From contig CAWDOD010000003.1 in assembly GCA_963803805.1 (NCBI GenBank), forward strand, positions 224,001 to 288,000: 64,000 bases of DNA, read 5' to 3'. The notes under the pieces are model-generated. The model saw only the letters and a list, made by a program, of their open reading frames with translations, did no database searches and had not been told where the DNA came from. Positions 24,118-39,749 of this stretch are shown here, piece after piece. This DNA is from an uncultured cyanobacterium. GTDB taxonomy: Bacteria; Cyanobacteriota; Cyanobacteriia; Cyanobacteriales; CAWCAG01. Every line of letters begins with the position of its first letter. The first letter of the stretch is position 1. A program made the position numbers and the translations under genes.

Positions 24118-27100
24118 TTACCCTTCTTCGATAACTATTTGCCACAAAGCATCGATAACATGGCCAAGCTGAGGGTGATTTTCATTTTCCTGAAGCCATT
24201 GTACTATTAGAGGGAGAATGCAGGAATCTTTTTTCCCTAGTTTACCCAAAGTATTAGCAGCACCGTAGCACACAGCAATATAATCACTACGAAGAAGAGG
24301 AATTAAAGCAGTCACTATTAGCTTCCCTACTTTTCCTAAATTCCCTAAAGCCTTAGCAGCACTATAGCGCACCCTAGAATCATCTTCGTGAAGGAGAGAG
24401 AGCAAAGCCGTTACTACTTCTTCTGATGCTTCTCCTAATTTACCCAAAGCATCAGCAACAAAATAGCGTATGTCATCATCTCCTTCAAGGAGAGAGAGCA
24501 AAGCCGTCACTACTTCTTCTGGTGCTTTTTCCAAATCACCCAGAGCATCAGCAGCACGGAAGCGTACAGAGTAATGATCGTCATGAAGAAGAGGTAGTAA
24601 AGCCGTCACCACTTCTTCTGATGCTTCTCCTAATTTACCTAAAGTAATAGCAGCACCGAAGCGTACCCTAGCATTATCATCACGAAGGAGAGGAAGCAAA
24701 GCATTTACTACCTCCTCTGATGCCTTTCCTAACTTACCTAAAGCATCAGCAGCACAATAGCGTACATCAGAATCATCATCACGAAGGAGAGGAAGCAAAG
24801 CATTTATTACCTCCTCTGATGCCTTTCCTAACTTACCTAAAGCATCAGCAGTACGAAAGCGCACCCTGGAATCATCATCACGAAGGAGAGGAAGCAAAGC
24901 ATTTATTACCTCCTCTGATGCTTTTCCTAACTTACCTAAAGCATCAGCAGTACGAAAGCGCACCCTGGAATCATCATCACGAAGGAGAGGAAGCAAAGCA
25001 TTTATTACCTCCTCTGATGCTTTTCCTAATTCACCTAGATTAGAAGCAGCAAAAGAGCGTATATGCCAGCTATTGTCCTCGCAAAGCAGAATTGAAGCAG
25101 TGATTACCCCTTGCTTTTCCCCTAACTCCACACGATATTTCTGCAACCTTACTTTATCAACTTTCTCACCTTCAGCCTTCAATAAATCTAAAACTTGCTT
25201 CTCAAAAGCTGTCTCATACAAACGCCGTAAAGTCTGAAAACCCTGCTCTCTAATTCGCCAACCAACCTGATTATCATCACTCACCTCCAAAGCCACCAAC
25301 CGAGTTAAAACCTCCTCCACCAAACCAGCATCAGCAACCCCTAGCCCCTTGGGATCTTCTGCTAAACAACTGCCTGCAAAAAATAAATCTCGATGTAACC
25401 ATTGCTCATATTCACTGCCGTTGTGTAAAATCGCTTTAATCGCCTTCGCTGCTTTCTTGGGCTTTTGCTGGGCAATTAACAATAGCAAAACTTCTCGCCA
25501 GTGAGGATCATGGAGATGTGCTTTAATATGATCAAGGATAATCTCAAAATCCCCTTCATTATCTGCTTGATAATCAATCTCTTGCCCACAGAGATATTCC
25601 TGGAAAGTCTTATGGACAAAAGCATAGCAGTTTTGTCCTTGTTCATTTAGTAACCCGGTGCGCTCTTGAATTAAACTAAGAAAACGCTTTGCTTCTTCCT
25701 TTGCTTCATAGGCTTGAATACCTTTGAGGGTTTTTATTTCCCCCTTCAACTTAGCTAACAACTCCTCACAATCAATTAAAGTTCCCCCTTCTTCATCCCC
25801 TGTATTACCTTCATTGTGTATCCAATAAGCAATGATTTCCAAAATCCGCCGCAAGTCATCTAAACTGAGATATTGCAATACTTTGTGTGCCGTAATCTCT
25901 TTGTTAGCATCCCAGGAAGTAAGCAAGGTTTCCACTGCTTTATCATAGAGTTTGTAACGTTCCTTGGGTAAAACCGCTTGATAACGATGGATTAAGGCGA
26001 TGATGGTTAATAACAGGGGATTCCGGGCGAGGAGTTTGATTCTTTCATTATCAGCCAAAGCCTTATGCAAATTCTCCTTGCACCTTGCTGCTTCCCCAGA
26101 ATCTTTCACCCGGCTATCATACCAATGGTTAACAAACTCCTCTAACTTCTCATCATCAAAAGCTTGTAACTCAAAACGGGGAAACTCTTCGGTACGGAAA
26201 AAGTCCCGTTTATAACCAGCCGGGCGGGAAGTAATAATCGCCCGGTTATGGGGAAACTGCCCCAAAAAGTTCTCAATGCGGCGGACAATTTCGTAACGCT
26301 TGCCCGTTTCTGCAACCTCATCTAAGCCATCAAGCAAAATCAAAGCCCGCCCATCTTCTAACCAATAATTAAAGAAGCCTGTGGGTAAAATTTTCACGGC
26401 TAAACGTTTTTCAGCAAACTGTTTGGCAAACTCCAAAATACTCACATCCCCCCACCTTGCTAAGTCGCGAATACGAATAATTATGGGTAGGTAATCTACA
26501 TCAGGATGTAAACCCAACTTCTCCCTTTCTCCTTGTGCCAACATCACCGCAAAGTAGCTAGCTAAGGTGGTTTTCCCTGAACCCGGCGCACCCAACAGCA
26601 CAAACTTCTTTGAGTCTGTTTGTTGCAAAAGCTGCGAAGCCAGAAACTTTCGCCCCGAAGGTTTGCTGAAAGCCCGTTGTCGTTGCTGGGCAAGTAAGAC
26701 TTGTTGTCGATTCTCTTCCCCTCCATAGTTCCCTAATTCAAAAACAAAATCCCTACCCCCATCTTCAACCACATCAGGCATCACAAATATTTGTGCCAAC
26801 TTCTCCGACTTCTCCACTTCCTGCCCCGCCACAGGCATCCCCGCAAACTTAACATCATCAAACCAATTTGCCAGTTGAGTGAGGTAATCTTCTTTGGCTA
26901 CCTGAAACTTAAGAAAAGCGTTGGTATTTTCAAAATAGGTTTTAGAAAAAACTTCTAACCAAGGCTTAACCAAATCCCTATCTATCTCTCCCTTCCCCGC
27001 AAAAAACCCCTCCCCTGCTTCTACAAAAGCCTTAGCCAAAAAATCCACATCAGGCAAACCTTCACCCTTGAGGGGCTTCTGTAACTCCTCTACTTGCGCC

Positions 27101-27318
27101 TCAAAAAACTGCCTCAGAAACTTCCTAATAAAATCAGGAGGACAACGATAAAACAACAAATTATATTCTTTCGTCGCCTCTCTAATCGCCCTATTCATTG
27201 CCTTACAAAGATCATCGCCGTTAAGTTTACTGTTAACCCCTCTCAGTAAAAACTCAACTCCCTTAACCGTAATACACTCTGCTGCCCAACCTGCGATCGC
27301 TGTTGTAACTGGTTCCAT
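24118..27318 (-). CDS. NACHT NTPase with C-terminal HEAT/PBS-lyase repeats
   Basis: GAPGSGKTT, LLDGLDEV, ITSR, NPLLL, F.HKTFQEY; 33-aa HEAT repeats. Confidence 0.92.
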   Translation of the reverse strand: MEPVTTAIAGWAAECITVKGVEFLLRGVNSKLNGDDLCKAMNRAIREATKEYNLLFYRCPPDFIRKFLRQFFEAQVEELQKPLKGEGLPDVDFLAKAFVEAGEGFFAGKGEIDRDLVKPWLEVFSKTYFENTNAFLKFQVAKEDYLTQLANWFDDVKFAGMPVAGQEVEKSEKLAQIFVMPDVVEDGGRDFVFELGNYGGEENRQQVLLAQQRQRAFSKPSGRKFLASQLLQQTDSKKFVLLGAPGSGKTTLASYFAVMLAQGEREKLGLHPDVDYLPIIIRIRDLARWGDVSILEFAKQFAEKRLAVKILPTGFFNYWLEDGRALILLDGLDEVAETGKRYEIVRRIENFLGQFPHNRAIITSRPAGYKRDFFRTEEFPRFELQAFDDEKLEEFVNHWYDSRVKDSGEAARCKENLHKALADNERIKLLARNPLLLTIIALIHRYQAVLPKERYKLYDKAVETLLTSWDANKEITAHKVLQYLSLDDLRRILEIIAYWIHNEGNTGDEEGGTLIDCEELLAKLKGEIKTLKGIQAYEAKEEAKRFLSLIQERTGLLNEQGQNCYAFVHKTFQEYLCGQEIDYQADNEGDFEIILDHIKAHLHDPHWREVLLLLIAQQKPKKAAKAIKAILHNGSEYEQWLHRDLFFAGSCLAEDPKGLGVADAGLVEEVLTRLVALEVSDDNQVGWRIREQGFQTLRRLYETAFEKQVLDLLKAEGEKVDKVRLQKYRVELGEKQGVITASILLCEDNSWHIRSFAASNLGELGKASEEVINALLPLLRDDDSRVRFRTADALGKLGKASEEVINALLPLLRDDDSRVRFRTADALGKLGKASEEVINALLPLLRDDDSDVRYCAADALGKLGKASEEVVNALLPLLRDDNARVRFGAAITLGKLGEASEEVVTALLPLLHDDHYSVRFRAADALGDLEKAPEEVVTALLSLLEGDDDIRYFVADALGKLGEASEEVVTALLSLLHEDDSRVRYSAAKALGNLGKVGKLIVTALIPLLRSDYIAVCYGAANTLGKLGKKDSCILPLIVQWLQENENHPQLGHVIDALWQIVIEEG

Positions 27319-29178: not shown

Positions 29179-31215
29179 ATGAACCAAAAAGTCCTTGAAA
29201 ACACCCGTAATGTTGCCATCGTTGGCCCTTATTCTAGCGGGAAAACAACTTTACTCGAAAGTTTACTCTTCATCACCGAAGCAATTCCCCGTAAAGGTTC
29301 AATCAAAGAAGGTAACACCGTAGGAGATGGTGCAACGGAAGCCAGGGAACATCACATGAGTGTTGAAGTTTCCGCCGCCAGTACAGATTATCAAGATATT
29401 AACTTCACCTTTCTAGACTGTCCCGGTTCCATTGAATTTGTTCAGGAAACCTACAATGCTTTAGTAGGGGCAGGGGCGGCAATTGTCGTTTGTGAACCAA
29501 TTATAGATAAGGTTCTAACCCTTGCTCCTTTGTTCAAATTCCTTGATGATTGGGAAATTCCCCACCTCGTCTTCATCAACAAAATGGATCGTGCCAATGA
29601 CCATTTTATGGAAGTTCTCCACGCCCTCCAAAAAGTTTCTAGTCGCCCCTTAGTACCCCAACAATACCCCATTCGCCAAAATCGGCAACTCCTGGGCTAC
29701 ATTGACTTAGTAACCGAACAAGCTTATCATTACCACCAAGGAGACTCTCCCGATCCGGTTCCCCTTCCCGAAGCCCTCAAAGAGGAAGAAAAAGCGGCTA
29801 GGGAAGAAATGTTGGAAACTTTAGCTGACTTTGATGACCATCTTTTAGAAGAACTCCTCGAAGATATTGACCCACCCCAAGAAGAAATTCTCCGTGACCT
29901 CAAACAAGATTTAAGTGCAGACTTAATTGTTCCTGTCTTCTTTGGCATTGCCGAAACCGATTTTGGTTTGCGCCCTTTACTGGACGCTTTGGTTAAAGAA
30001 GCACCTGCGCCGAATATAACTGCCCAACGTCGCGGCTTCACCCCCACCAATGACGGTAAACCGAAACTACAAGTACTCAAAACCTACTATACTCCCCAAG
30101 GTGGTAAACTTTCCTTAGTACGTATTTGGCAAGGTCAGTTAACCGAAGGTGCAATCCTTAATGGTGTCAGGGCTGGGGGAATGTATCGCTTAACGGGACA
30201 GCAACAGACATCTTTAACCCAAGCTTCTGTGGGGGAAATTATGGCCATTTCCCGTTTAGAAGGTATCAACACTGGGGACACCCTCACCACCGATGAAGTC
30301 TTGCAACCAGAGGATGAACTACCCAAAGCAGACGCCATTGCCCCAGTATATGCCCTTGCCGTTACCCCAGAAAAACGCAAGGATGAAGTTAAACTCAGCA
30401 GTGCCATTAGCAAACTCCTAGAAGAAGATCCTTCCTTAACCTGGGAACAGCAAGCCGATACTCACGAAGTTATTCTTTGGGGTCAAGGGGAAATTCATCT
30501 GCGGGTTTCTTTAGATCGTTTGCGGCGCAAGTATAACCTGCCCATGAACACCCAATCCCCCCAAATCCCTTACAAAGAAACCATCCGTCAAGCCACCACT
30601 TCCCACGGCCGCTATAAACATCAAAGCGGTGGTCACGGGGCTTTCGGGGATGTATATTTAGATATTCGTCCTTTAGGTAGGGGAGAAGGGTTCAATTTTC
30701 AAGAAACTATTGTTGGCGGGGCTGTACCAAAACAATATATTTCTGGGGTTGAAACCGGGGTTAAGGAATATCTCAACCATGGCCCCTTGGGTTTCCCGGT
30801 GGTAGATGTTAGTGTCACCTTAACCGACGGTTCCCACCACTCTGTTGATAGTTCTGAACAAGCTTTTAAACAAGCCGCCCGCATTGCCATGACAGAAGGA
30901 ATGCCTAGTTGTAAGCCGATTTTACTTGAACCTATCCTTGCCATTGTAGTCTCTGCCCCCTCTGAGTTCACCTCCAAAGCCTTGCAACTAGTCACAGGCC
31001 GCCGGGGACAAATTCTCGGTTACGAACCCTTAAGAAACTGGCAAGGATGGGACCAGATATCAGCCCATTTACCCCAAGCAGAAATGCAAAATTTTATTAT
31101 TGAATTGCGATCGCTAACTATGGGAGTTGGCTTCTTTAATTGGCAGTATGACCACCTCCAAGAAGTACCGGGTAAGTTAACGGAAAGTGTTTTGAGTAAG
31201 GGTGTGGGGGTGTAA
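29179..31215 (+). CDS. fusA: Elongation factor G paralog (EF-G2-like)
   Basis: GPYSSGKTT, DCPG, NKMD, EEDPSL, GEIHL, YKET, KHQSGGHGAFG, VDSSEQAF; P-loop differs from canonical AHIDAGKTT. Confidence 0.88.
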   Translation: MNQKVLENTRNVAIVGPYSSGKTTLLESLLFITEAIPRKGSIKEGNTVGDGATEAREHHMSVEVSAASTDYQDINFTFLDCPGSIEFVQETYNALVGAGAAIVVCEPIIDKVLTLAPLFKFLDDWEIPHLVFINKMDRANDHFMEVLHALQKVSSRPLVPQQYPIRQNRQLLGYIDLVTEQAYHYHQGDSPDPVPLPEALKEEEKAAREEMLETLADFDDHLLEELLEDIDPPQEEILRDLKQDLSADLIVPVFFGIAETDFGLRPLLDALVKEAPAPNITAQRRGFTPTNDGKPKLQVLKTYYTPQGGKLSLVRIWQGQLTEGAILNGVRAGGMYRLTGQQQTSLTQASVGEIMAISRLEGINTGDTLTTDEVLQPEDELPKADAIAPVYALAVTPEKRKDEVKLSSAISKLLEEDPSLTWEQQADTHEVILWGQGEIHLRVSLDRLRRKYNLPMNTQSPQIPYKETIRQATTSHGRYKHQSGGHGAFGDVYLDIRPLGRGEGFNFQETIVGGAVPKQYISGVETGVKEYLNHGPLGFPVVDVSVTLTDGSHHSVDSSEQAFKQAARIAMTEGMPSCKPILLEPILAIVVSAPSEFTSKALQLVTGRRGQILGYEPLRNWQGWDQISAHLPQAEMQNFIIELRSLTMGVGFFNWQYDHLQEVPGKLTESVLSKGVGV

Positions 31216-31282: not shown

Positions 31283-32860
31283 CTAATTACTAGCAACCAA
31301 CTCTTTAGTTTTAGCTAATTGTTCCCGGAAGAACTCTTCTAGAGGATCTATATGCACATCCTCAAACCACTCACTCGCTATATCTTCAATAACGTGGTGT
31401 TCTGCCACCAGTTCATCGCCGCAATAGCGTCTGACAATGGGATGAATGCCAGAACTGAGGGCAGCTTGATTAGCATCATCTTTGTGGATACGATCAACAG
31501 CAAAGGGATCAGGACTTTCGTTGATGATATCCAAACCAAACTCTAGGGTAATCACATAATAGTGGTCATGCTTACCTAAATGACTATCATGAACATAATC
31601 AATAGGTAAGTCTTCATGATATTGTGCCTCTTGCCCTTCCCCAGGTACAATCACTGTGTCACAGAGAAACCCAGTTTGTTGCCACAGTGCCGAAGTTATG
31701 TTCACTCTGTCGAGAATTGCTTTGGTTAAGCTTTCTGGGGTGGTAGCTACGGGTTGGTAAGGTAAGGGCTGATTGTAATACTTACTTTCTAGAATCTTGT
31801 GCAGGGCTTTAATGTTGTAGCGGAAGCCATGAATAAAGCCGGATTGCTTCTTCTTGTAATCCCGCATATGCATCAGCACCCCAATGAAGTACAAATCCTT
31901 AACATTGGTGGATTCCCAATCACTAGTTTGAGCTGGGAAACGGTCATTATAAGCTAGTTCAGGCTTGCAAGACTCTTCAAAAAGGGAATCATCAAAGCTA
32001 AATCCTGCACACAAAATTACCCGATCATAAACTAAATCCTCAATCTCTCCATTGGCATGGGTGTAATCGAAAGTAACCACATACTTACCATCGTCTTGAG
32101 GCTTGATTTCTAAGACTTTGGCATCAAGAACCACATTTTGGGACTTGAGTTGATAAGTATCGAGGAAGTTATTATTAACCGCCCGCAAATGGCCGACATA
32201 CTTAGTTTTCCAAGCCATGGAAACAGGATTAGGACTAACAATATGGGTTAAAGCGGTGGTTCCCATTAAATGTTCTGCTGTCTCAAACCCTGAGTTTCCT
32301 TTACCAATAATCAGTACTTTCTCATTGGCAAAATCTTCTGGATCTAAGGAGACATCGGTATAGTTTTCTGCAAACTCAATACCAGGAACATCAGGAACAT
32401 AGGGCTTAGCGAAGCCTGTAGCCACAATCAAATGCTGACAAGAGTAAACGTTGCCGTTGCTATCAATAACTAAAAAGCCATCATTTTTAGCAATCCTAAC
32501 TACCTCAACGCCATATTTAATCTTGAGTTGGTAGTAGCTAGCAAAATCATCAAGATATTTGAGGAGATCCTGGGCATCAGGTAAGTAGCTGCGGCTGTAG
32601 TTTTTGAACAGCAAATCAGGATTGTCACTTAGTAAAGAATTCCAATCCCAGCGTAGGTTGATTTCTGGATCGTCATAACCAGTATGTACTTTGTTAATGG
32701 AGATTAAAGTTCTATGGCGGGGAAGGGCTTTGAAGGTATGTCCAGGGTTTTCCCCTGCTTCTAGAATCAAATAATCTCGGTTAGCTTTCTCCAAGAAATA
32801 GCCAAGTTGTAGCCCAGCAGGGCCAGCACCGATAATGATGTAATCCAGTTGTTTAAGCAT
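31283..32860 (-). CDS. FAD/NAD(P)-dependent oxidoreductase, FOXRED2-like (class B flavoprotein architecture)
   Basis: IIGAGPAGLQLGYFL, PRHRTLISINK..TG, NLRWDWNSLLS, VATG, IIGKGNSGFE, GFIHGFRY. Confidence 0.82.
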   Translation of the reverse strand: MLKQLDYIIIGAGPAGLQLGYFLEKANRDYLILEAGENPGHTFKALPRHRTLISINKVHTGYDDPEINLRWDWNSLLSDNPDLLFKNYSRSYLPDAQDLLKYLDDFASYYQLKIKYGVEVVRIAKNDGFLVIDSNGNVYSCQHLIVATGFAKPYVPDVPGIEFAENYTDVSLDPEDFANEKVLIIGKGNSGFETAEHLMGTTALTHIVSPNPVSMAWKTKYVGHLRAVNNNFLDTYQLKSQNVVLDAKVLEIKPQDDGKYVVTFDYTHANGEIEDLVYDRVILCAGFSFDDSLFEESCKPELAYNDRFPAQTSDWESTNVKDLYFIGVLMHMRDYKKKQSGFIHGFRYNIKALHKILESKYYNQPLPYQPVATTPESLTKAILDRVNITSALWQQTGFLCDTVIVPGEGQEAQYHEDLPIDYVHDSHLGKHDHYYVITLEFGLDIINESPDPFAVDRIHKDDANQAALSSGIHPIVRRYCGDELVAEHHVIEDIASEWFEDVHIDPLEEFFREQLAKTKELVASN

Positions 32861-33144
32861 AATTGTCAGATGTTGTAGACTAGGCTCTGATGAATGGAAG
32901 ACGTTAAGTTAGCTCAATAAGATTTTTCTCGCAGCCAACAATTTAGCTATGACTTGCTAATTGTTGTCAGATGTGGATTGTCACCTGGATATTTTGGTTT
33001 GGATTAGTTCGATAAAAAACGAGAAAATTTATTTGAGTTGGCTATAAGTCTAAAAGGTAAATGTTTTCCTAAGTGTTTGCGTAACGTATATTTTTAGGCT
33101 TGCTTTGTATATTTTAGTGTTTGTTTTTCTCCTAAGCTGAAACC

Positions 33145-33185
33145 AAAAAAACCCAGGCAGAGTAAGCAAACTCCAGGCTGGGCTT
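33145..33185 (-). terminator. Probable intrinsic terminator after the second diiron-enzyme gene
   Basis: Imperfect CCCAG..GAGT/ACTC..CTGGG stem followed by a T-tract on the minus strand. Confidence 0.45.
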
Positions 33186-33236
33186 AGTTTGAAAGTAGGA
33201 ATTTTACTACCTTCGGAAATTAATTTGCAAAAAATA

Positions 33237-33959
33237 TCAAGAAAGACAGGGTAATGGCAAAGCCTGACTTTTTTGGGCAAAGGCTAACAACTCTTGGGTT
33301 AACTCAGTGAAAATAGCAAAAACCCTCTCTACCAATTCAAAAGCTTTAGTCCTACTTTGGGCCGATAGCTGAACACTCTCTAAAACAGTTTCTATGTTAT
33401 CTACACCCGTCAGGTGTCCTGTCTCAAAACTTAGGTGAAAATGTCCGAAGTAACGATAGTCTTGCTTGGTAATTTCTTTTAATTCTTGGGTAACTGTAGC
33501 AGTATTGCTAAACATCACAACACCTGCTGCTTCAATAGCTTCACTAACTGCTAGCTTGATGTTGATATCGAGTTTTTCTGCTTCAAAGATACACTGTTCC
33601 AGTAAATGGGAAACACGACGGGCAACTTTAGTCTCTTCTCCCCAAAGAAAAGCCAAAGTTGCGTTCATATCTTGCTTTTGGTTGAAGCCGAGTTTGTCTA
33701 AATCTTCTAGAAACCAACGCCAGTGGCGTTCATCTTCGTAGGTATGATTGTTAATCAGTTGCTGAATGTGATTTTGGTTAGATTCCTGGCGCAATACATA
33801 CTTGTTAAGATCGCTAAAATCCATGATGAAAGGAGCAACACAAGGGGCAAAAGCTAGCCTTTTTTGGGGGCTAATACTTTTATCCTGGAGATATACCATA
33901 AGTGGTACATGGCTAAATTCCTGTTGCTTTTGGTTGATTAAGGCAAGAACTTCTTTCAT
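33237..33959 (-). CDS. Heme-oxygenase-like diiron oxidase, AetD-like (copy 2)
   Basis: HTYEDERHWRWF, EAIEAAG, HLSFETGH; MKEVL start at 33959 aligns with the paralog start. Confidence 0.8.
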   Translation of the reverse strand: MKEVLALINQKQQEFSHVPLMVYLQDKSISPQKRLAFAPCVAPFIMDFSDLNKYVLRQESNQNHIQQLINNHTYEDERHWRWFLEDLDKLGFNQKQDMNATLAFLWGEETKVARRVSHLLEQCIFEAEKLDINIKLAVSEAIEAAGVVMFSNTATVTQELKEITKQDYRYFGHFHLSFETGHLTGVDNIETVLESVQLSAQSRTKAFELVERVFAIFTELTQELLAFAQKSQALPLPCLS

Positions 33960-34019
33960 GTTGATTCTGTTGTGTTCTAGGCTGTTTAGATTCAAAATAT
34001 TTACTTATTCAGCATTCCC

Positions 34020-34071
34020 AAAAAAAAGAGGCAGCAACCTAAATAATACTTGAGTATCCAGGTTGCTGCCT
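34020..34071 (-). terminator. Intrinsic terminator between the two diiron-enzyme genes
   Basis: Perfect 12-bp stem AGGCAGCAACCT/AGGTTGCTGCCT followed by T8 on the minus strand. Confidence 0.7.
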
Positions 34072-34102
34072 AAAGAGAGTATTTAATACTTAATCGCTTA
34101 AT

Positions 34103-34825
34103 TTAGTTAAGATGGGAAGACAGAACTTTTTGATTATTATTGGCGAAAGCTAGTAACTCGTGAGTTAGTTCTGTAAAGATATCAAAAACTCTCTCCACTA
34201 GTTCAAAAGCTTTGATTCTACTCTGTGGCGATAACTGAATATTCTCTAAAACAGTTTCTACGTTATCTGTCCCAGTTAAGTGTCCTGTTTCTAAATCCAA
34301 GTGAAAACGTCCGAAGTAACGGTAGTTTTTTTGCGTAATCTCTTGTAGTTCTTGAGCAACAGCAGTAGTGTTGCCAAACATAACTACTCCAGTTGCTTCA
34401 ATAGCTTCACTAACAACGATTCTCAAGTTAGGATCTGCTTGTTCTGCTTCTAGTAAACATTGTTCTAGTTGTTGACAAACATGACGGGAAACCCTGGTAT
34501 CTTTGCCCCAGAGAAACTTCAAAAGGTTACTCATCTTTTGTTCTCCATCGAAGCCTAATTTTTCTAAGTCTTCAATAAACCAATGCCAGTGGCGTTCATC
34601 TTCATGGGTATGCTTATTGATCAGTTTTTGGGCAGGAACAGAAGAAGATTCTTGACGTAAGACATATTTGTTAAAATGCCTAAATTCCATAGCAAAGGGA
34701 GCAATACAAGGGGCAAAGGCTAGCCTTCTTTCGGGACTAATACTTTGGTCTTGTAAGTAAGCCATTAAGGGCAATTGGCTAAATTCTTCTTTCTTTTGTT
34801 CAATAAAGCTAAGGACATCTTTCAT
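34103..34825 (-). CDS. Heme-oxygenase-like diiron oxidase, AetD-like (copy 1)
   Basis: D76, H79 (HTHEDERHW), E143 (EAIEATG), H175/E179/H182 (HLDLETGH): same ligand pattern as AetD. Confidence 0.8.
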   Translation of the reverse strand: MKDVLSFIEQKKEEFSQLPLMAYLQDQSISPERRLAFAPCIAPFAMEFRHFNKYVLRQESSSVPAQKLINKHTHEDERHWHWFIEDLEKLGFDGEQKMSNLLKFLWGKDTRVSRHVCQQLEQCLLEAEQADPNLRIVVSEAIEATGVVMFGNTTAVAQELQEITQKNYRYFGRFHLDLETGHLTGTDNVETVLENIQLSPQSRIKAFELVERVFDIFTELTHELLAFANNNQKVLSSHLN

Positions 34826-35184: not shown

Positions 35185-36326
35185 AGACATCTCCGAAAAA
35201 GAATCAAACTATGATAAAAGAAGATAAAATAGAATTTTTAACCAGAAATAATGAGTAAAATACTCGAATATATCCAGCAACATCCCAGAGAATCTCAGCG
35301 TTTAGTAGGTTTAAAATATGAACAGTTAGAAAAACTGCTCTCCAAGGCTATTGAACTAGAGGCTCAAAAACGAAAACTAGCGGAAGCTCAAAAAGTCAGA
35401 ATTATTGGCTCTGGAGGTGGTAGAAAAGCGAAACTATCTCCACCAGAACAAGTAATCCTAACCTTAACATATTTACGACACTTAACGACATTTCAGCTAC
35501 TAGGGATTCAGTTTGGTATTAGTGAAACAACTGCCAATAATATTTTTAACTATTGGTGTCCCCTAATAGGAGAATTATTACCAGCAAGTATCTATGAGCA
35601 GGTAAAAAAAACGAGTGTGACTATGAAATAGTCCAAGAGATGTTAGCAGAGTTCGAGTTAATTGTAGATAGCTATGAGCAGCCCATCGAAAGACCTGGAG
35701 AGTATGAAGAGCAGAAAAAGTATTACTCAGGTAAAAAAGCTAATCACACAAGAAAAACTCAAGTAATTGTTTTACCAAAAGGTCAATCTGGTCGTCGATG
35801 TTGAAGCGGGTTTACCGGGTCCAAAAAGTGATATCAAAATATTTAGGGAAACGAAAACAAAATTTAGTGAGCAGCAAAGATTTAGGGGAGATAAAGCTTA
35901 TCAAGGAGACAAATCAACGACAACGCCTCTGAAAAAGCCGAGAAAAAAACAACTAAATGCTCAAGAAAAACAAATAAATAAAGAGCTAGCTAAGGAGCGA
36001 ATATTCGTAGAACATTTAATTAGATTAATTAAGATATTTAGAGTAGCTAGTGAAAGATTCAGATTAAATTCCCATAAATATGAGCAGGTAGTTACGACAA
36101 TTTGTGGGTTAGTGAGATTAAGAATTGGTACTTCTGTGTTTTAGTGAAGATATATCTGCCCTTGCCCTTGGCAAATAACTATCTAATTAGAGCTATCTTT
36201 TTGTTAGTTATGGGTAGTAGCTTTCTCAAATACTTATTAAACCGTAGAATAGAGCTATCTTTGGGTCAAGGCAACTGCCATCTCAAAGACTGTACTGTAT
36301 AACTTTGGCTATTTCCGGAGAGGTCT
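35185..36326 (+). mobile_element. IS5-family (ISL2-group-like) insertion sequence
   Basis: TIRs AGACATCTCCGAAAA / TTTCCGGAGAGGTCT; AAT direct repeat on both flanks; HTH and DDE transposase frames. Confidence 0.88.
35251..36144 (+). pseudogene. IS5-family transposase split over three frames
   Basis: OrfA GGGRKAKL..EQ.ILTL.YLRH; A8 slip site 35604-35611; -1 frame IVDSYEQPIERP..YYSGKK; second shift near 35785; GDKAYQG, RIFVEHLIR. Confidence 0.82.
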
Positions 36327-36456: not shown

Positions 36457-37530
36457 TCAAAAAATAAATATCTTATCCAAAGTCTCTTTCTGCAAACCAA
36501 CCACCGTAGGTTGAGGTAAACCGGGTAACAGTTGTAAATCAAACAACTCAGTACAACCTGAATCAAACCGAAGAAAGCCAACAGTTTCACCAGAGTGAAT
36601 ATTCACCACCACCACAGCGCATTGCAGCTCTTTTTCCCTCTCTTGCAGGGGCAAACCACCAAAGATTTTTTTCTCCCTAATTTGTGACAAACCAATAAAG
36701 CCATAACATCCGTAGAAAGCCAACCCCCTGGTAAATCCCGGCAACTCTGCTACAGTAGTACTTTGCCCCGTATAAAGATCCACCCTGACTAAATGCCCCC
36801 GCCCAGAATCTAGCAACCACAAACCACCATCATAAAACCGGGGAGAATGGGGCATGGCGAAACCCCGTGCTACAATTTCTCCACTAGGTATATCAATCAA
36901 GCAACCTCCTCCTACCTTGCCTTCCCGCCAGCCTCTAGGGGTATCCGTATCTCCCAAAGCTGTCACAAACTTAGGCTTTCCTCCCAAAAGTGCTAAACCA
37001 TTGAGATGACAGCGATCTTCTGCTTGCAAACTACTGATGAATAGTGGTTTCCACTGAGGTACAAAATTAAACTCTGGACTCAAAGTACATAAACAAGAAA
37101 ATCGAGTATTTACTACCCACAACTCCTCCCCAACCCAAGCTATCTCATGGACACGAATATCTCCTGTCACATAACAATGGCGGGGGACAAAACAGGCATC
37201 GTATTCTCGATTTGGTTCAACTTTGTTAGCAATTCCTGGTACATTGGCTAAAAACCAAACTTGCTTGCGAGTTCCTATAGCTAGGCGGTGAGGTTGCAAA
37301 GCTAACCCCATAACCTTTTTAAAGCTACGTAGCAAAGTGACTAGCTGACCATTTTCTGACCTCACTACCATTAGCTTCCCGGCTTGGTAAGTAGAAATAA
37401 ACAGGGAAAGGTTCAGGTTGGCTAAAAGTTCAGGAAAACCACCAGAGTGAACATAGCTAATCTTATTATTAGTCATTGCTTGGTAATCATTAATAATAAT
37501 TAATAAAACTGCCCCAAGAGGTAGGGGCAA
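36457..37530 (-). CDS. TIGR03032/DUF4915 family protein
   Basis: STYQAGKL, TGDI..HE, VNTRFSCL, EDRCHLNGLA, MPHSPR, LPGFTRGL; true start probably ATG at 37476. Confidence 0.88.
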   Translation of the reverse strand: MPLPLGAVLLIIINDYQAMTNNKISYVHSGGFPELLANLNLSLFISTYQAGKLMVVRSENGQLVTLLRSFKKVMGLALQPHRLAIGTRKQVWFLANVPGIANKVEPNREYDACFVPRHCYVTGDIRVHEIAWVGEELWVVNTRFSCLCTLSPEFNFVPQWKPLFISSLQAEDRCHLNGLALLGGKPKFVTALGDTDTPRGWREGKVGGGCLIDIPSGEIVARGFAMPHSPRFYDGGLWLLDSGRGHLVRVDLYTGQSTTVAELPGFTRGLAFYGCYGFIGLSQIREKKIFGGLPLQEREKELQCAVVVVNIHSGETVGFLRFDSGCTELFDLQLLPGLPQPTVVGLQKETLDKIFIF

Positions 37531-37626: not shown

Positions 37627-37881
37627 ATGCAAGACGATGAATCCTTATCTGAGTTTGAGCAACCTAAAGACTATATCCCTATAGAAGAACATTCTGCTTT
37701 GCAGTTTGCTGAAAGGGAAGCTAAAGTCTCTGAAGCTATCCAACCGTCCCAAGAAGGAAGAGTTAAATTTCAAGGTAGTGAGTGGTCTGCAAAATGCTTA
37801 ACAAACGCCACCTTGCTTCCTGGTAGAATGGTTAAGGTTATTGGGGTTCAAAGTAATACTTTGGTGGTAGAACCACAATAG
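37627..37881 (+). CDS. Stand-alone NfeD-like C-terminal OB-fold protein
   Basis: GRVKFQGSEWSA...PGRMVKVIGVQSNTLVVEP. Confidence 0.8.
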   Translation: MQDDESLSEFEQPKDYIPIEEHSALQFAEREAKVSEAIQPSQEGRVKFQGSEWSAKCLTNATLLPGRMVKVIGVQSNTLVVEPQ

Positions 37882-39494: not shown

Positions 39495-39749
39495 TTAGTA
39501 GCATTCTACAATTAAGGTGATGTTATCAATTCCTACTACCCGAACTTTTCGCCCCGGTAGTATCGTTACATTTTGTAAGCATCTAGCAGGCCAATCACTA
39601 GCCCGAAAGTGAACTCTACCGATTTTGCTAGGAATAATCGTTTCTGCCACCTTGGCTTCTCTAGGTGCAAATCGGAAAACGGGATGTTTTTCTATGGGTA
39701 TATAGCTTTGATGTGGTGTTTTATGAAGGCGACGACTAGTAAGTTGCAT
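39495..39749 (-). CDS. Stand-alone NfeD-like C-terminal OB-fold protein (paralog of 37627)
   Basis: YIPIEKH..F.FA.REAKV; GRVHFRASDWPARC...PGRKVRVVGIDNITLIVE. Confidence 0.8.
   Translation of the reverse strand: MQLTSRRLHKTPHQSYIPIEKHPVFRFAPREAKVAETIIPSKIGRVHFRASDWPARCLQNVTILPGRKVRVVGIDNITLIVECY

Follow-up and report, generated by a model that had tools for sequence, protein, structure and literature searches.

A candidate tryptophan side-chain-cleaving module with a flavoprotein partner in an uncultured cyanobacterium

Two adjacent genes for heme-oxygenase-like diiron oxidases (HDOs) and a gene for a flavoprotein of Pyr_redox_3 type (PR3) lie together in the genome of an uncultured cyanobacterium, raising the question of whether they form one pathway and, if so, what it makes. 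In the window, the whole stretch of 64,000 nucleotides that was analysed, the three open reading frames are co-oriented at the coordinates in Table 1, as the original prediction had placed them. The motifs it listed can be read in the translations: HTHEDERHW/HTYEDERHW, EAIEATG/EAIEAAG and HLDLETGH/HLSFETGH in HDO1/HDO2, and GAGPAG (residues 11-16) and GKGNSG (186-191) in PR3. The longest frame of HDO2 begins at a TTG (33237-33995); the ATG at 33959 aligns with the family N-terminus MKEVL. A genome of the same genus (G401) has counterparts of all three in identical order, and the dN/dS values against it (HDO1 0.05, HDO2 0.10, PR3 0.024) indicate purifying selection on each. These are genuine genes rather than chance open reading frames.

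Table 1. Features of the HDO1-HDO2-PR3 locus (window coordinates)
Feature	Position	Strand	Basis or remark
HDO1, 240-aa HDO of the AetD/SktA family	34103..34825	-	ORF and PDB match to AetD
HDO2, 240-aa paralogue of HDO1	33237..33959 (ATG start)	-	ORF and PDB match to AetD
Terminator-like hairpin, then U7	33138..33190	-	47-99 nt past the HDO2 stop codon; weak evidence
HDO2-PR3 spacer, 376 nt	32861..33236	-	ORF coordinates
PR3, 525-aa FAD/NAD(P)H flavoprotein	31283..32860	-	ORF and Pfam Pyr_redox_3

Over 234 residues, HDO1 and HDO2 share 66% identity (E 3e-122). In PDB searches both match the solved structures of AetD (8ji2, 8zvg, 8twn) near full length, with E 1.3e-54 for HDO1 and 8.8e-52 for HDO2, and the next match reaches only E 0.3; the similarity to AetD on which the original prediction had staked itself is thus significant. 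AetD, from the aetokthonotoxin cluster, is a nitrile synthase (PDB 8ji2, 8twn; PMC10654658, PMC11611611), and its published ligands are H79, H172 and E176 for Fe1 and D76, E140, E176 and H179 for Fe2 (PMC10654658). The original prediction gave the same set, and alignment bears out its mapping onto D76, H79, E143, H175, E179 and H182, a 3-residue insertion in HDO1/HDO2 accounting for the shifted numbers. All six ligands are intact in both proteins, which the alignment identifies as true AetD homologues. F44, F48 and Y170 are also retained in the alignment columns; in AetD, F48 (replacing a Glu ligand), F44 and a carboxylate-binding Tyr are described as serving chelation of Fe1 by the alpha-amino acid and stacking of the indole (PMC10654658, PMC11611611, PMC13108848).

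A second characterised relative is closer. In Nostoc punctiforme NIES-2108, the skt cluster encodes the skatole synthase SktA, the Trp 5-halogenase SktB and the FMO SktC (Adak et al., JACS 2025, PMC11869266), and tryptophans are given there as the substrates of both AetD and SktA (PMC11869266). HDO1 and HDO2 share 50% identity with SktA (reference L049:10001-10714), compared with 40% over 224 residues with AetD. Their pocket residues (AetD numbering) are SktA-like at M146, F168 and F214 in both and at T142 in HDO1, and AetD-like at Y165 in both and A142 in HDO2. Position 139 is Ile, where AetD has Met and SktA Thr; Ser at 136 and Ile at 213 are peculiar to the pair, and the HDO1 and HDO2 pockets diverge at positions 41, 45 and 142. 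Their clade forms a separate branch (SH-aLRT 100) outside both the AetD branch and the 26-row SktA clade, in a quick tree without bootstrap that does not settle how this branch joins SktA, the tandem clade and the fusions.

The family context also points to tryptophan. A Trp halogenase gene follows the HDO gene in many of 80 related loci, SktB-type in 26 and of a second type in 16, and a Trp dimethylallyltransferase domain is fused to the HDO domain in two representative proteins (P0286 and P0307). On this comparative evidence, HDO1 and HDO2 are very probably AetD/SktA-family oxidases that would act on a tryptophan-like amino acid. Paired HDOs recur as well, which would suit a heterodimer of HDO1 and HDO2: tandem genes occur in 7/80 loci, 16 of the 150 representatives listed are HDO-HDO fusions, and AetD is apparently dimeric (PMC11611611). 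A giant kinase gene accompanies the HDO in 66/80 loci; none adjoins the locus in the window.

The resemblance to skt extends to gene order, an HDO gene followed by a flavoenzyme gene (L049), but the two systems differ in composition. The window has two HDO paralogues rather than one, neither an SktB-type halogenase nor an SktC-type FMO was found in the genome, and PR3 has no BLAST-level relation to SktB or SktC (no match in L049).

Is PR3 then a partner of these oxidases? PR3 lies directly downstream of an HDO gene in 18 of the 80 related loci (58-71% identity in 17, 42% in one). A class sample of 401 genomes contains close PR3 in 10 genomes, every one with an HDO match; in nine the HDO lies about 3 kb or less from PR3 on the same contig, four of these nine being one open frame. 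Within a family sample of 389 genomes, PR3 occurs in 57, and an HDO gene lies within 1.5 kb at 29 of the best 30 loci. Natural fusions of 824-912 aa, with the HDO N-terminal, PR3 C-terminal and a linker of about 12-25 residues, make up 16 of the best 120 PR3 protein clusters. Linkage and fusion span several cyanobacterial orders, and HDOs linked to PR3 are up to 71-73% identical with SktA. The co-occurrence that the original prediction proposed to survey is therefore conserved, and since linkage and fusion tie PR3 functionally to the iron enzyme, PR3 is in all likelihood a working partner of the HDOs.

What kind of partner is less clear from the fold. PR3 covers all 305 positions of the Pfam Pyr_redox_3 profile with E 7e-53 and a score of 180 bits, the cut-off being 30, and its AF2 model (pLDDT 86.5, pTM 0.89) comprises a two-Rossmann core (~1-362) resembling group-B monooxygenases and thioredoxin reductases, followed by a family-specific C-terminal domain (~363-525). 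The nearest solved structures are type II FMOs (4a9w, 4usq, 4usr), S. aureus 3d1c and YpdA/Bdr (7a7b), which match the core at Z 24-26, rmsd 3.1-3.9 Å over 305-342 residues and ~20-23% identity, with profile E values of 1.7e-15 to 2e-12. The top folds against the model, over residues 2 to ~362, are YpdA/Bdr (Z 26.3), 3d1c (26.2) and type II FMO (25.7), followed by ZvPNO (23.9), N-hydroxylases (~22) and TrxR-like enzymes (~21-22). Reductases and monooxygenases thus tie in this model-based comparison, which does not separate the possible roles of PR3.

PR3 differs from these chains in conserved insertions at ~46-93 and 209-245 and in the 160-residue C-terminal domain, which they leave uncovered. 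The second insertion lies in the NADP domain, is modelled at low confidence and contains an invariant Lys239. The C-terminal domain has many invariant residues, including a His/Glu/Asp-rich stretch (H473, E487, H489, E492, D493, H503) that might, speculatively, bind metal. Against the YpdA model TIGR04018, PR3 scores 82.6, below the cut-off of 339.9. FOXRED2 clusters (FOXRED2 being the eukaryotic FAD-dependent oxidoreductase domain-containing protein 2) appear, as a lead, among the look-alikes of PR3 at rank 11 (score 0.98) in a language-model feature search, in agreement with an earlier impression. To our knowledge, FOXRED2 has no defined enzymatic function.

Genomic position gives a further indication. 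PR3 occupies the slot held elsewhere by tryptophan halogenases: it occurs together with either halogenase type in 0/80 loci, and the order HDO-PR3-SktC-like in 3/80 mirrors HDO-SktB-SktC. For this reason the role that we somewhat favour for PR3 is that of a tailoring oxygenase, halogenases included, and most likely a tailoring monooxygenase. The mutual exclusion of PR3 and halogenases may also reflect ancestry rather than function.

PR3 could instead be an electron donor, passing electrons from NAD(P)H through FAD to the HDOs and perhaps reloading Fe(II), with the gene pair and the fusions acting as self-sufficient HDOs; we consider this the less likely role, though one with several points in its favour. 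Assays of SktA and AetD are described as requiring Fe(II) and ascorbate (PMC11869266). Judging from the published stoichiometry, skatole formation is a 2-electron oxidation of the substrate, so that O2 reduction needs two more electrons. NADPH-dependent reductases (YpdA/Bdr, TrxR-like FNRs, IruO) are among the best folds, the C-terminal stretch could hold a metal, and PR3 almost never occurs without an HDO gene. Oxygenase-reductase fusions are common, and the domain order of the 16 HDO-PR3 fusions, oxygenase N-terminal and flavoprotein C-terminal, resembles that of known ones; the fusions therefore fit a reductase role too. A dedicated redox partner of an HDO was described only in 2026, MboA/MboB of the mangotoxin cluster being possibly the first such pair to be characterised (PMC13185094). 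That pair resembles the present locus in encoding a dedicated flavoprotein alongside the HDO. However, MboA, a peptide desaturase, is not closely related, and MboB is a flavin and Fe2S2 reductase of the phthalate-dioxygenase-reductase type, whereas PR3 is a two-Rossmann protein in which a Pfam domain search finds no Fe2S2 module. Moreover, 42 of the 80 related loci have halogenases but no PR3, which implies that close HDO relatives function without it, and SktA is reported to make skatole in E. coli with no partner (PMC11869266). Reductases of the same fold manage with ~320-350 aa and have no need of an additional 160-residue domain. Two genomes (G425 and G485) carry PR3 and no HDO gene; at one of these loci the neighbours are FAD_binding_4, EgtD-like methyltransferase and DAO genes. 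Any role for PR3 other than tailoring or donation is a little less probable again.

The original prediction was a nitrile-forming pathway, in which the duplicated HDOs would act as AetD-like synthases converting Trp or another amino acid, possibly premodified by PR3, into indole-3-carbonitrile-type products. Its homology to AetD and its flavoprotein link have held up; the nitrile itself now appears unlikely. In its favour are the shared fold family and identical ligands, Tyr at 165 and Ala at 142 of HDO2, where the residues agree with AetD and not SktA, and the close similarity reported for the AetD and SktA active sites (PMC13108848), which means that small changes may switch the outcome. Against it, besides the lower identity to AetD and the position outside its branch, AetD-clade signature columns number just 2/33 in HDO1 and 1/33 in HDO2, Ile replaces Met139, and Phe replaces Ser214, which contacts 7-Br in AetD. 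AetD-clade proteins occur in only 3 of the 389 genomes of the family sample; all three AetD-clade loci fetched lack an adjoining PR3, and two of them (L103, L104) have P450 and halogenase genes. AetD also appears as a singleton in the network published in PMC11869266. The AetA, AetB, AetE and AetF context is absent here: as had been supposed, a Trp halogenase, AetF and AetE were not found in the genome.

A more specific, and improbable, form of tailoring would make PR3 a new single-component flavin-dependent halogenase of the AetF/Bmp5 kind, replacing SktB and feeding halogenated Trp to the HDOs. It would suit the exact halogenase slot that PR3 occupies; group-B FMO folds can halogenate, AetF and Bmp5 being two-dinucleotide-domain flavoproteins of this kind, with AetF likewise beside an AetD-family gene (PMC10306068); and Lys239, like the catalytic Lys258 of AetF, sits in an NADP-domain insertion. 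However, AetF is longer (668 aa against 525), its extra elements are unlike those of PR3, and the remote profile similarity (probability 92%, E 5e-7) extends over no more than 134 columns, in the FAD domain, in keeping with the earlier view that the flavoprotein is no AetF orthologue. PR3 has canonical dinucleotide motifs, whereas those of AetF depart from the consensus, and group-B enzymes are mostly oxygenases.

As a counterpoint to a single module, the terminator-like hairpin and the 376-nt spacer part HDO2 from PR3. The hairpin folds at -17.7 kcal/mol (z -2.08), 7 of 200 shuffles fold equally well, and a consensus terminator scan does not flag it. One 272-nt contig of metatranscriptome run X5 corresponds to 32725-32995 with 3 mismatches, DNA carry-over being possible; it begins inside the spacer and spans the PR3 start codon and 135 nt upstream. 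The spacer probably holds PR3's own promoter or 5' leader. That PR3 has nothing to do with the adjacent genes and is driven by a promoter of its own, leaving the two HDO genes as the unit, would suit the spacer, the hairpin and the start of this sole RNA contig, but is very improbable given the linkage and fusions across cyanobacteria and the identical three-gene order in G401.

The preferred reading, a minimal skt/aet-type module for cleaving the side chain of tryptophan with a dedicated flavoprotein partner, stands for us at about an even chance. Each HDO would take up L-tryptophan, or a tryptophan modified on the ring, with the amine and carboxylate of the substrate coordinated to Fe1. Its binding would set off activation of O2 to a peroxo-diferric species, followed by oxidative cleavage of the 2-aminopropionate side chain. 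SktA is reported to yield skatole, cyanide and bicarbonate, with no nitrile among the products described (PMC11869266). A 3-methylindole-type compound with cyanide and CO2 would correspondingly be the likeliest specific product, a serious though tentative possibility; an AetD-like nitrile would be a doubtful one, and some other product may well apply, with nearly even likelihood. The HDO paralogues, an old pair, may each take differently substituted substrates or form a heterodimer, and PR3 would be an NAD(P)H/FAD group-B-type monooxygenase tailoring the indole substrate or product. As PR3 elsewhere nearly always adjoins or fuses with such an HDO, the three genes would constitute a real small pathway.

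Tandem genes for heme-oxygenase-like diiron oxidases (HDOs) together with a gene for a FOXRED2-like flavoprotein form a widespread, uncharacterised architecture. In the window it consists of HDO1, HDO2 and the Pyr_redox_3 flavoprotein PR3, co-oriented on the minus strand and separated by gaps of 143 nt (107 nt counting from the TTG of HDO2) and then 376 nt. The motifs quoted in the original prediction are all found in the three translations. In the same-genus genome G401, equivalents of the three genes stand in identical order, and comparison with them gives dN/dS values of 0.05 (HDO1), 0.10 (HDO2) and 0.024 (PR3); by this measure all three are evidently maintained genes.

Features of the HDO1-HDO2-PR3 locus and its surroundings (window positions)
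Feature	Position	Strand	Description
NACHT NTPase	24118-27318	-	1,066 aa; extended run of almost identical HEAT repeats of 31 residues at the C terminus; 107-aa repeat-derived ORF on the opposite strand
EF-G-like gene	29179-31215	+	
PR3 flavoprotein	31283-32860	-	ORF, 525 aa
HDO2	33237-33959	-	240 aa from the ATG matching the family N-terminus; longest ORF from TTG at 33995
HDO1	34103-34825	-	ORF, 240 aa
Split IS transposase	35251-36144	+	HTH_Tnp_4 and DDE_Tnp_4 halves; upstream of HDO1
Two ORFs of the split IS transposase	35251-35631, 35767-36144	+	One transposase, frame break between; directly upstream of HDO1
DUF4915 / TIGR03032-family gene	36457-37530	-	E 1e-126; past the IS remnant
NfeD-like paralogue	37627-37881	+	84 aa
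Gene between the NfeD-like paralogues			480 aa; OMP-decarboxylase-like and phosphoribosyltransferase domain fusion
NfeD-like paralogue	39495-39749	-	84 aa; inverted orientation

G401 lacks the IS transposase and has in its place genes for a cNMP-binding MscS-type channel and a CHASE2 cyclase. A terminator-like hairpin lies 3' of HDO2, and a promoter and terminator scan gave counts no higher than in shuffled sequence. One RNA library contains a metatranscriptome contig at 32725-32995, which takes in the start codon of PR3 together with 135 nt on its upstream side; the run left the remainder of the 3.7 kb uncovered, from which nothing follows as to expression. The DNA runs X1 and X2 show that the locus is present in sediment metagenomes, and nothing beyond presence.

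HDO1 and HDO2 are, judged by sequence, real members of the known AetD/SktA enzyme family. Each aligns over nearly its full length with AetD, the nitrile synthase of solved structure (E 1.3e-54 and 8.8e-52, the next PDB sequence standing at E 0.3), and the AetD homology originally proposed for the two small proteins is well founded. A Pfam search found no family for either, and NCBIfam returned a lone weak sub-threshold match, to HDO2. HDO1 is 50% identical to SktA and 40% to AetD, the latter taken from the aet-type locus L103. Iron dependence and a substrate-triggered peroxo-diferric intermediate mark enzymes of this type and would be predicted for both.

Structural work on AetD gives the ligands as H79, H172 and E176 for Fe1 and D76, E140, E176 and H179 for Fe2 (PMC10654658). 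The alignment places the full three-histidine, three-carboxylate set at D76, H79, E143, H175, E179 and H182 in both HDO1 and HDO2, just as the original prediction had mapped it. In AetD, F48 stands where other HDOs have a Glu ligand and Fe1 is left open; the open Fe1 chelates the substrate amine and carboxylate, while F44 stacks on the indole and Y167 binds the carboxylate (PMC11611611). F48, F44 and the equivalent tyrosine (Y170) are kept in HDO1 and HDO2, from which it is natural to infer that a Trp-like alpha-amino acid would sit on Fe1.

Chemistry is known for only two members of the family, one making a nitrile and the other skatole and cyanide. The product that marks the AetD clade is a nitrile, with glycolate as co-product. 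SktA from Nostoc punctiforme NIES-2108 converts 5-bromo-Trp, and also Trp, to (bromo)skatole, cyanide and bicarbonate, and its three-gene cluster also encodes the halogenase SktB and the flavin monooxygenase (FMO) SktC (PMC11869266). For HDO1 and HDO2, a skatole/cyanide-type cleavage is the better prior on present comparisons; a nitrile product is possible but less likely.

A quick IQ-TREE run with SH-aLRT support only was made on 94 rows (87 HDO ORFs from 80 loci, HDO1 and HDO2, and five database proteins). HDO1 and HDO2, with same-genus copies and close relatives, form a branch of their own (SH-aLRT 100), which shares its half of the tree with the SktA clade, the tandem-HDO clade and a fusion; the AetD-like row stands apart from these on a long branch. 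A different branch (SH-aLRT 94) sets apart the 26 rows linked to both SktB and SktC. In this quick tree HDO1 and HDO2 stand outside the SktA clade.

In 33 alignment columns, four AetD-clade sequences all agree on a residue that at most 5% of 90 other family rows carry, five window-clade rows being set aside; HDO1 has two of these signature residues and HDO2 has one. Ser214 of AetD, which touches the substrate 7-Br, is Phe in both window proteins. A 2026 review contrasts M139/A142/S214 in AetD with T139/T142/F214 in SktA (PMC13108848). At these positions HDO1 has I/T/F and HDO2 I/A/F, so that F214 of SktA is present in both, T142 in HDO1 only (Ala in HDO2), and 139 is Ile in both; such a pocket would have no room for a 7-bromo group. 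The pocket looks SktA-like at several positions, and S136 and I213 are unique. Membership of the AetD clade is rejected on the few signature columns, the Phe at Ser214 and the absence of aet context, for which AetF and AetE were sought. What holds of the nitrile-forming pathway first proposed is the AetD homology and the ligand set; the lower identity to AetD than to SktA, the scarcity of signature residues, and the Phe and Ile at positions 214 and 139 speak against it.

The genomic context differs from both known clusters. The aet cluster encodes the halogenase AetF, the tryptophanase AetE and a P450, whereas neither AetF nor AetE has a match at E 0.001 in the window genome; the skt cluster has SktB and SktC, whereas neither was found here. 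In this 97%-complete genome the two HDO genes are the only copies, and the best Trp_halogenase match reaches 26 bits over a partial profile only. The earlier observation that no other aet genes are present extends to this assembly for AetF, AetE and Trp halogenase. Elsewhere, locus L104 (G460:C130) shows a hybrid aet/skt layout: its AetD-clade gene (79% identical to AetD) has a P450 gene on one side and, on the other, the gene of an SktB-type halogenase (77% identical to SktB).

When one genome per prokaryote species was scanned by pattern, 266 relatives of HDO1 came to light, of which the best 80 loci were kept; neighbouring ORFs were called by a custom script and then clustered. In 26 of the 80 loci the HDO is followed by a Trp halogenase gene of SktB type, and all 26 also have an SktC-type FMO gene, which occurs in 29 loci overall; in 16 (Microcoleus) the next gene encodes a second Trp_halogenase/FAD_binding_3-type enzyme. 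The next gene is PR3 in 18 loci; 17 of these copies show 58-71% identity, the remaining one 42%. The skt locus of N. punctiforme NIES-2108 was recovered as L049. PR3 and a halogenase never share a locus among the 80, and the order HDO-PR3-SktC-like, found in three, mirrors HDO-SktB-SktC.

The linkage recurs in wider samples. Of 401 genomes sampled from the class to which the window belongs, 12 have PR3 (E <=1e-30) and 56 an HDO. A close PR3 (>=59% identity) is accompanied by an HDO match in ten genomes out of ten; in nine the two are no more than about 3 kb apart on one contig, and the tenth PR3 stands at a contig end. In four of these nine, a single ORF of 831-925 aa contains both. A sample of another cyanobacterial family has PR3 in 57 of its 389 genomes, and in the best 30 PR3 loci an HDO gene lies within 1.5 kb in 29, the linked HDOs being up to 71-73% identical to SktA. 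In a large protein collection, 16 of the best 120 PR3 protein clusters are HDO-PR3 fusions of 824-912 aa, the HDO taking up the first 230 or so residues and PR3 extending from about 240 to about 765. The co-occurrence of AetD-like and flavoprotein genes, which the original prediction had named as a check, is borne out by the 18 loci, the 29 close pairs and the 16 fusion clusters; by gene order and fusion, PR3 is a real partner of HDO.

Two genomes have PR3 without an adjoining HDO gene: G425, which also has an aet-type cluster, and G485. Next to these HDO-less genes (loci L106 and L107), a search for HDO remnants found only weak N-terminal matches (E 0.007-0.27). The G425 gene (L106, G425:C367) is surrounded by genes for a FAD_binding_4 (cytokinin-dehydrogenase-like) oxidase, an EgtD-like methyltransferase, a DAO protein, a PAS-Crp regulator and a giant kinase; the FAD_binding_4 oxidase gene also accompanies PR3 in L099 (G385:C103). 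A PR3 gene next to an HDO at G357:C95:17833-19379 has two stop codons inside and may be a pseudogene or reflect a sequencing error.

Other neighbours recur to different degrees. A Ser/Thr-kinase/AAA_16/GAF/His-kinase ATPase gene of about 1,740-2,030 aa adjoins the HDO in 66 of the 80 loci, L049 included, in varying orientation, and also stands beside HDO-PR3 fusions of other orders (L093-L098). The window genome has at least 13 near-full-length paralogues of this family, none of them near the locus on contig 3. C-terminal tails with weak DUF4388 (PF14332) matches of 20-29 bits occur on some HDOs, PR3s and HDO-PR3 fusions (proteins P0087, P0114, P0189 and P0198; loci L093-L095). The EF-G-like gene was rejected as part of the module: it is conserved in the same-genus genome only and has no match in the 80 HDO loci, and it bears no relation to the proteins of 674-678 aa encoded beside two of the fusions.

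PR3 matches Pfam Pyr_redox_3 over the whole profile (positions 1-305 of 305; E 7e-53, 180 bits, the cut-off being 30), and its dinucleotide motifs GAGPAG and GKGNSG both fit the consensus GxGxxG. A PDB profile search places type II FMOs on top (4a9w, E 1.7e-15), followed by the bacillithiol-disulfide reductases YpdA/Bdr, 3d1c, TrxR-like FNRs and Baeyer-Villiger monooxygenases. An AF2 model from 19 sequences was discarded (pLDDT 61.9) in favour of one from 67 (pLDDT 86.5, pTM 0.89). The best of its listed fold matches are YpdA/Bdr (Z 26.3), 3d1c (Z 26.2), type II FMOs (Z 24.4-25.8), ZvPNO (Z 23.9), N-hydroxylases (Z about 22) and thioredoxin reductases (Z about 21-22). The model has a group-B FMO / TrxR-like fold with two dinucleotide domains; across FMOs, N-hydroxylases, YpdA and TrxRs the Z scores lie at 20-26. 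Oxygenase chemistry, as against that of a plain reductase, proceeds through a C4a-hydroperoxyflavin. With its neighbours tied between oxygenases and reductases, the modelled fold does not separate the two and cannot tell the role.

The fold matches reach from residue 2 to about residue 362 of the model. Two conserved insertions are unmatched in the fold search: 46-93, with invariant R70-W-D-W-N74, and 209-245, of low model confidence, with invariant R226, D234, Y236, K239 and N242. The C-terminal domain of 160 residues (about 363-525), rich in invariant His, Glu and Asp, is barely covered by the matches listed.

Several class assignments can be set aside. PR3 is not a YpdA/Bdr bacillithiol-disulfide reductase, scoring 82.6 bits on NCBIfam TIGR04018 against a cut-off of 339.9. 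MboB, the partner of the HDO MboA, is a flavin and Fe2S2 reductase (PMC13185094), whereas a Pfam search of PR3 found no Fe-S or ferredoxin domain; PR3 is therefore outside the MboB family, which is compatible with a redox-partner function. The original view that PR3 is not an AetF orthologue is upheld. In hhalign, the 67-sequence PR3 profile aligns with AetF (L103:12488-14494) over 134 FAD-domain columns only (probability 92%, E 5e-7), and AetF is absent from the PR3 sequence matches listed (best 44; best 60 of 178) and from the model fold matches listed. The dinucleotide motifs of AetF are described as non-consensus (PMC10306068), whereas those of PR3 are canonical. The catalytic K258 of AetF lies in an NADP-domain insertion, as does K239 of PR3, invariant in both the 19- and 67-sequence sets; K239 is a candidate counterpart of K258.

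A role of PR3 as a tailoring oxygenase, halogenation included, seems reasonably probable. PR3 takes the slot of the halogenase without ever accompanying one in the 80 loci, is found together with SktC, has a large extra domain and occurs in two genomes with no HDO gene beside it. HDOs 71-73% identical to SktA pair with PR3, yet SktA in E. coli needs no partner. In addition, P0286 and P0307 are proteins of about 605 aa with an N-terminal tryptophan dimethylallyltransferase (PF11991) and a C-terminal AetD/SktA-type domain. The joining of a Trp-tailoring enzyme to an HDO is therefore a recurring design, and these fusions imply HDO chemistry on prenylated tryptophan.

That PR3 instead supplies electrons or iron to the HDOs is possible, if unlikely. 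HDOs require external electrons and their iron is labile; the fusions run from oxygenase to flavoprotein, and the occurrence of PR3 is almost strictly tied to an HDO gene. MboB is the sole dedicated HDO redox partner described so far (PMC13185094). A predicted complex of HDO1 and PR3 scored 0.00, without controls; it gives no verdict and is weighed neither way. It is likewise a tentative and rather doubtful idea that PR3 and HDO, separate chains in the window and a joined one in at least 16 protein clusters elsewhere, form one catalytic machine, either a self-sufficient NAD(P)H-driven HDO or an HDO with a dedicated third type of Trp-tailoring flavoenzyme, whose product might be a signal. An indole or cyanide signal is considered because the module accompanies GAF-containing giant kinases, PAS-Crp regulators and DUF4388-like tails across cyanobacterial orders.

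HDO1 and HDO2 are 66% identical with a dS of 1.39, and their duplication is older than the split of the window genome and G401. Their pockets differ at positions 41 (I/V), 45 (A/I) and 142 (T/A). Tandem HDO genes occur in seven of the 80 loci, the second directly following the first in six and a second-type halogenase gene lying between them in L023. HDO-HDO fusions of 500-543 aa make up 16 of the 150 family representatives listed (P0277, P0280 and 14 more); in the four inspected, simple ligand patterns are confined to the first half, which suggests that the second half may be non-catalytic. AetD is apparently dimeric (PMC11611611). HDO1 and HDO2 may form a heterodimer or take different substrates.

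The SktA paper describes AetD homologues in various genomic contexts, all of unknown function, and its supplement, as far as accessible, makes no mention of neighbourhoods or fusions (PMC11869266). A search of PMC open-access papers and bioRxiv, with subscription journals outside its scope, found no description of an HDO-Pyr_redox_3 pairing or fusion. The pairing of HDO with a FOXRED2-like flavoprotein is a sub-architecture present in 57 of the 389 genomes of one family sample and often fused in other orders. Solving this locus would decide between tailoring and electron supply by the flavoprotein, a question that concerns the HDO superfamily at large. If the one-machine reading were true, no earlier heme-oxygenase-like oxidase would be self-sufficient and NAD(P)H-driven in this way, or, equally new, a third Trp-tailoring type would be at hand; its solution would open the FOXRED2-like flavoproteins, as a family, to functional study for the first time. 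The locus would also reveal the Trp product of a third family branch and the reason for keeping two paralogues; cyanide or skatole released by benthic cyanobacteria would be of ecological interest.
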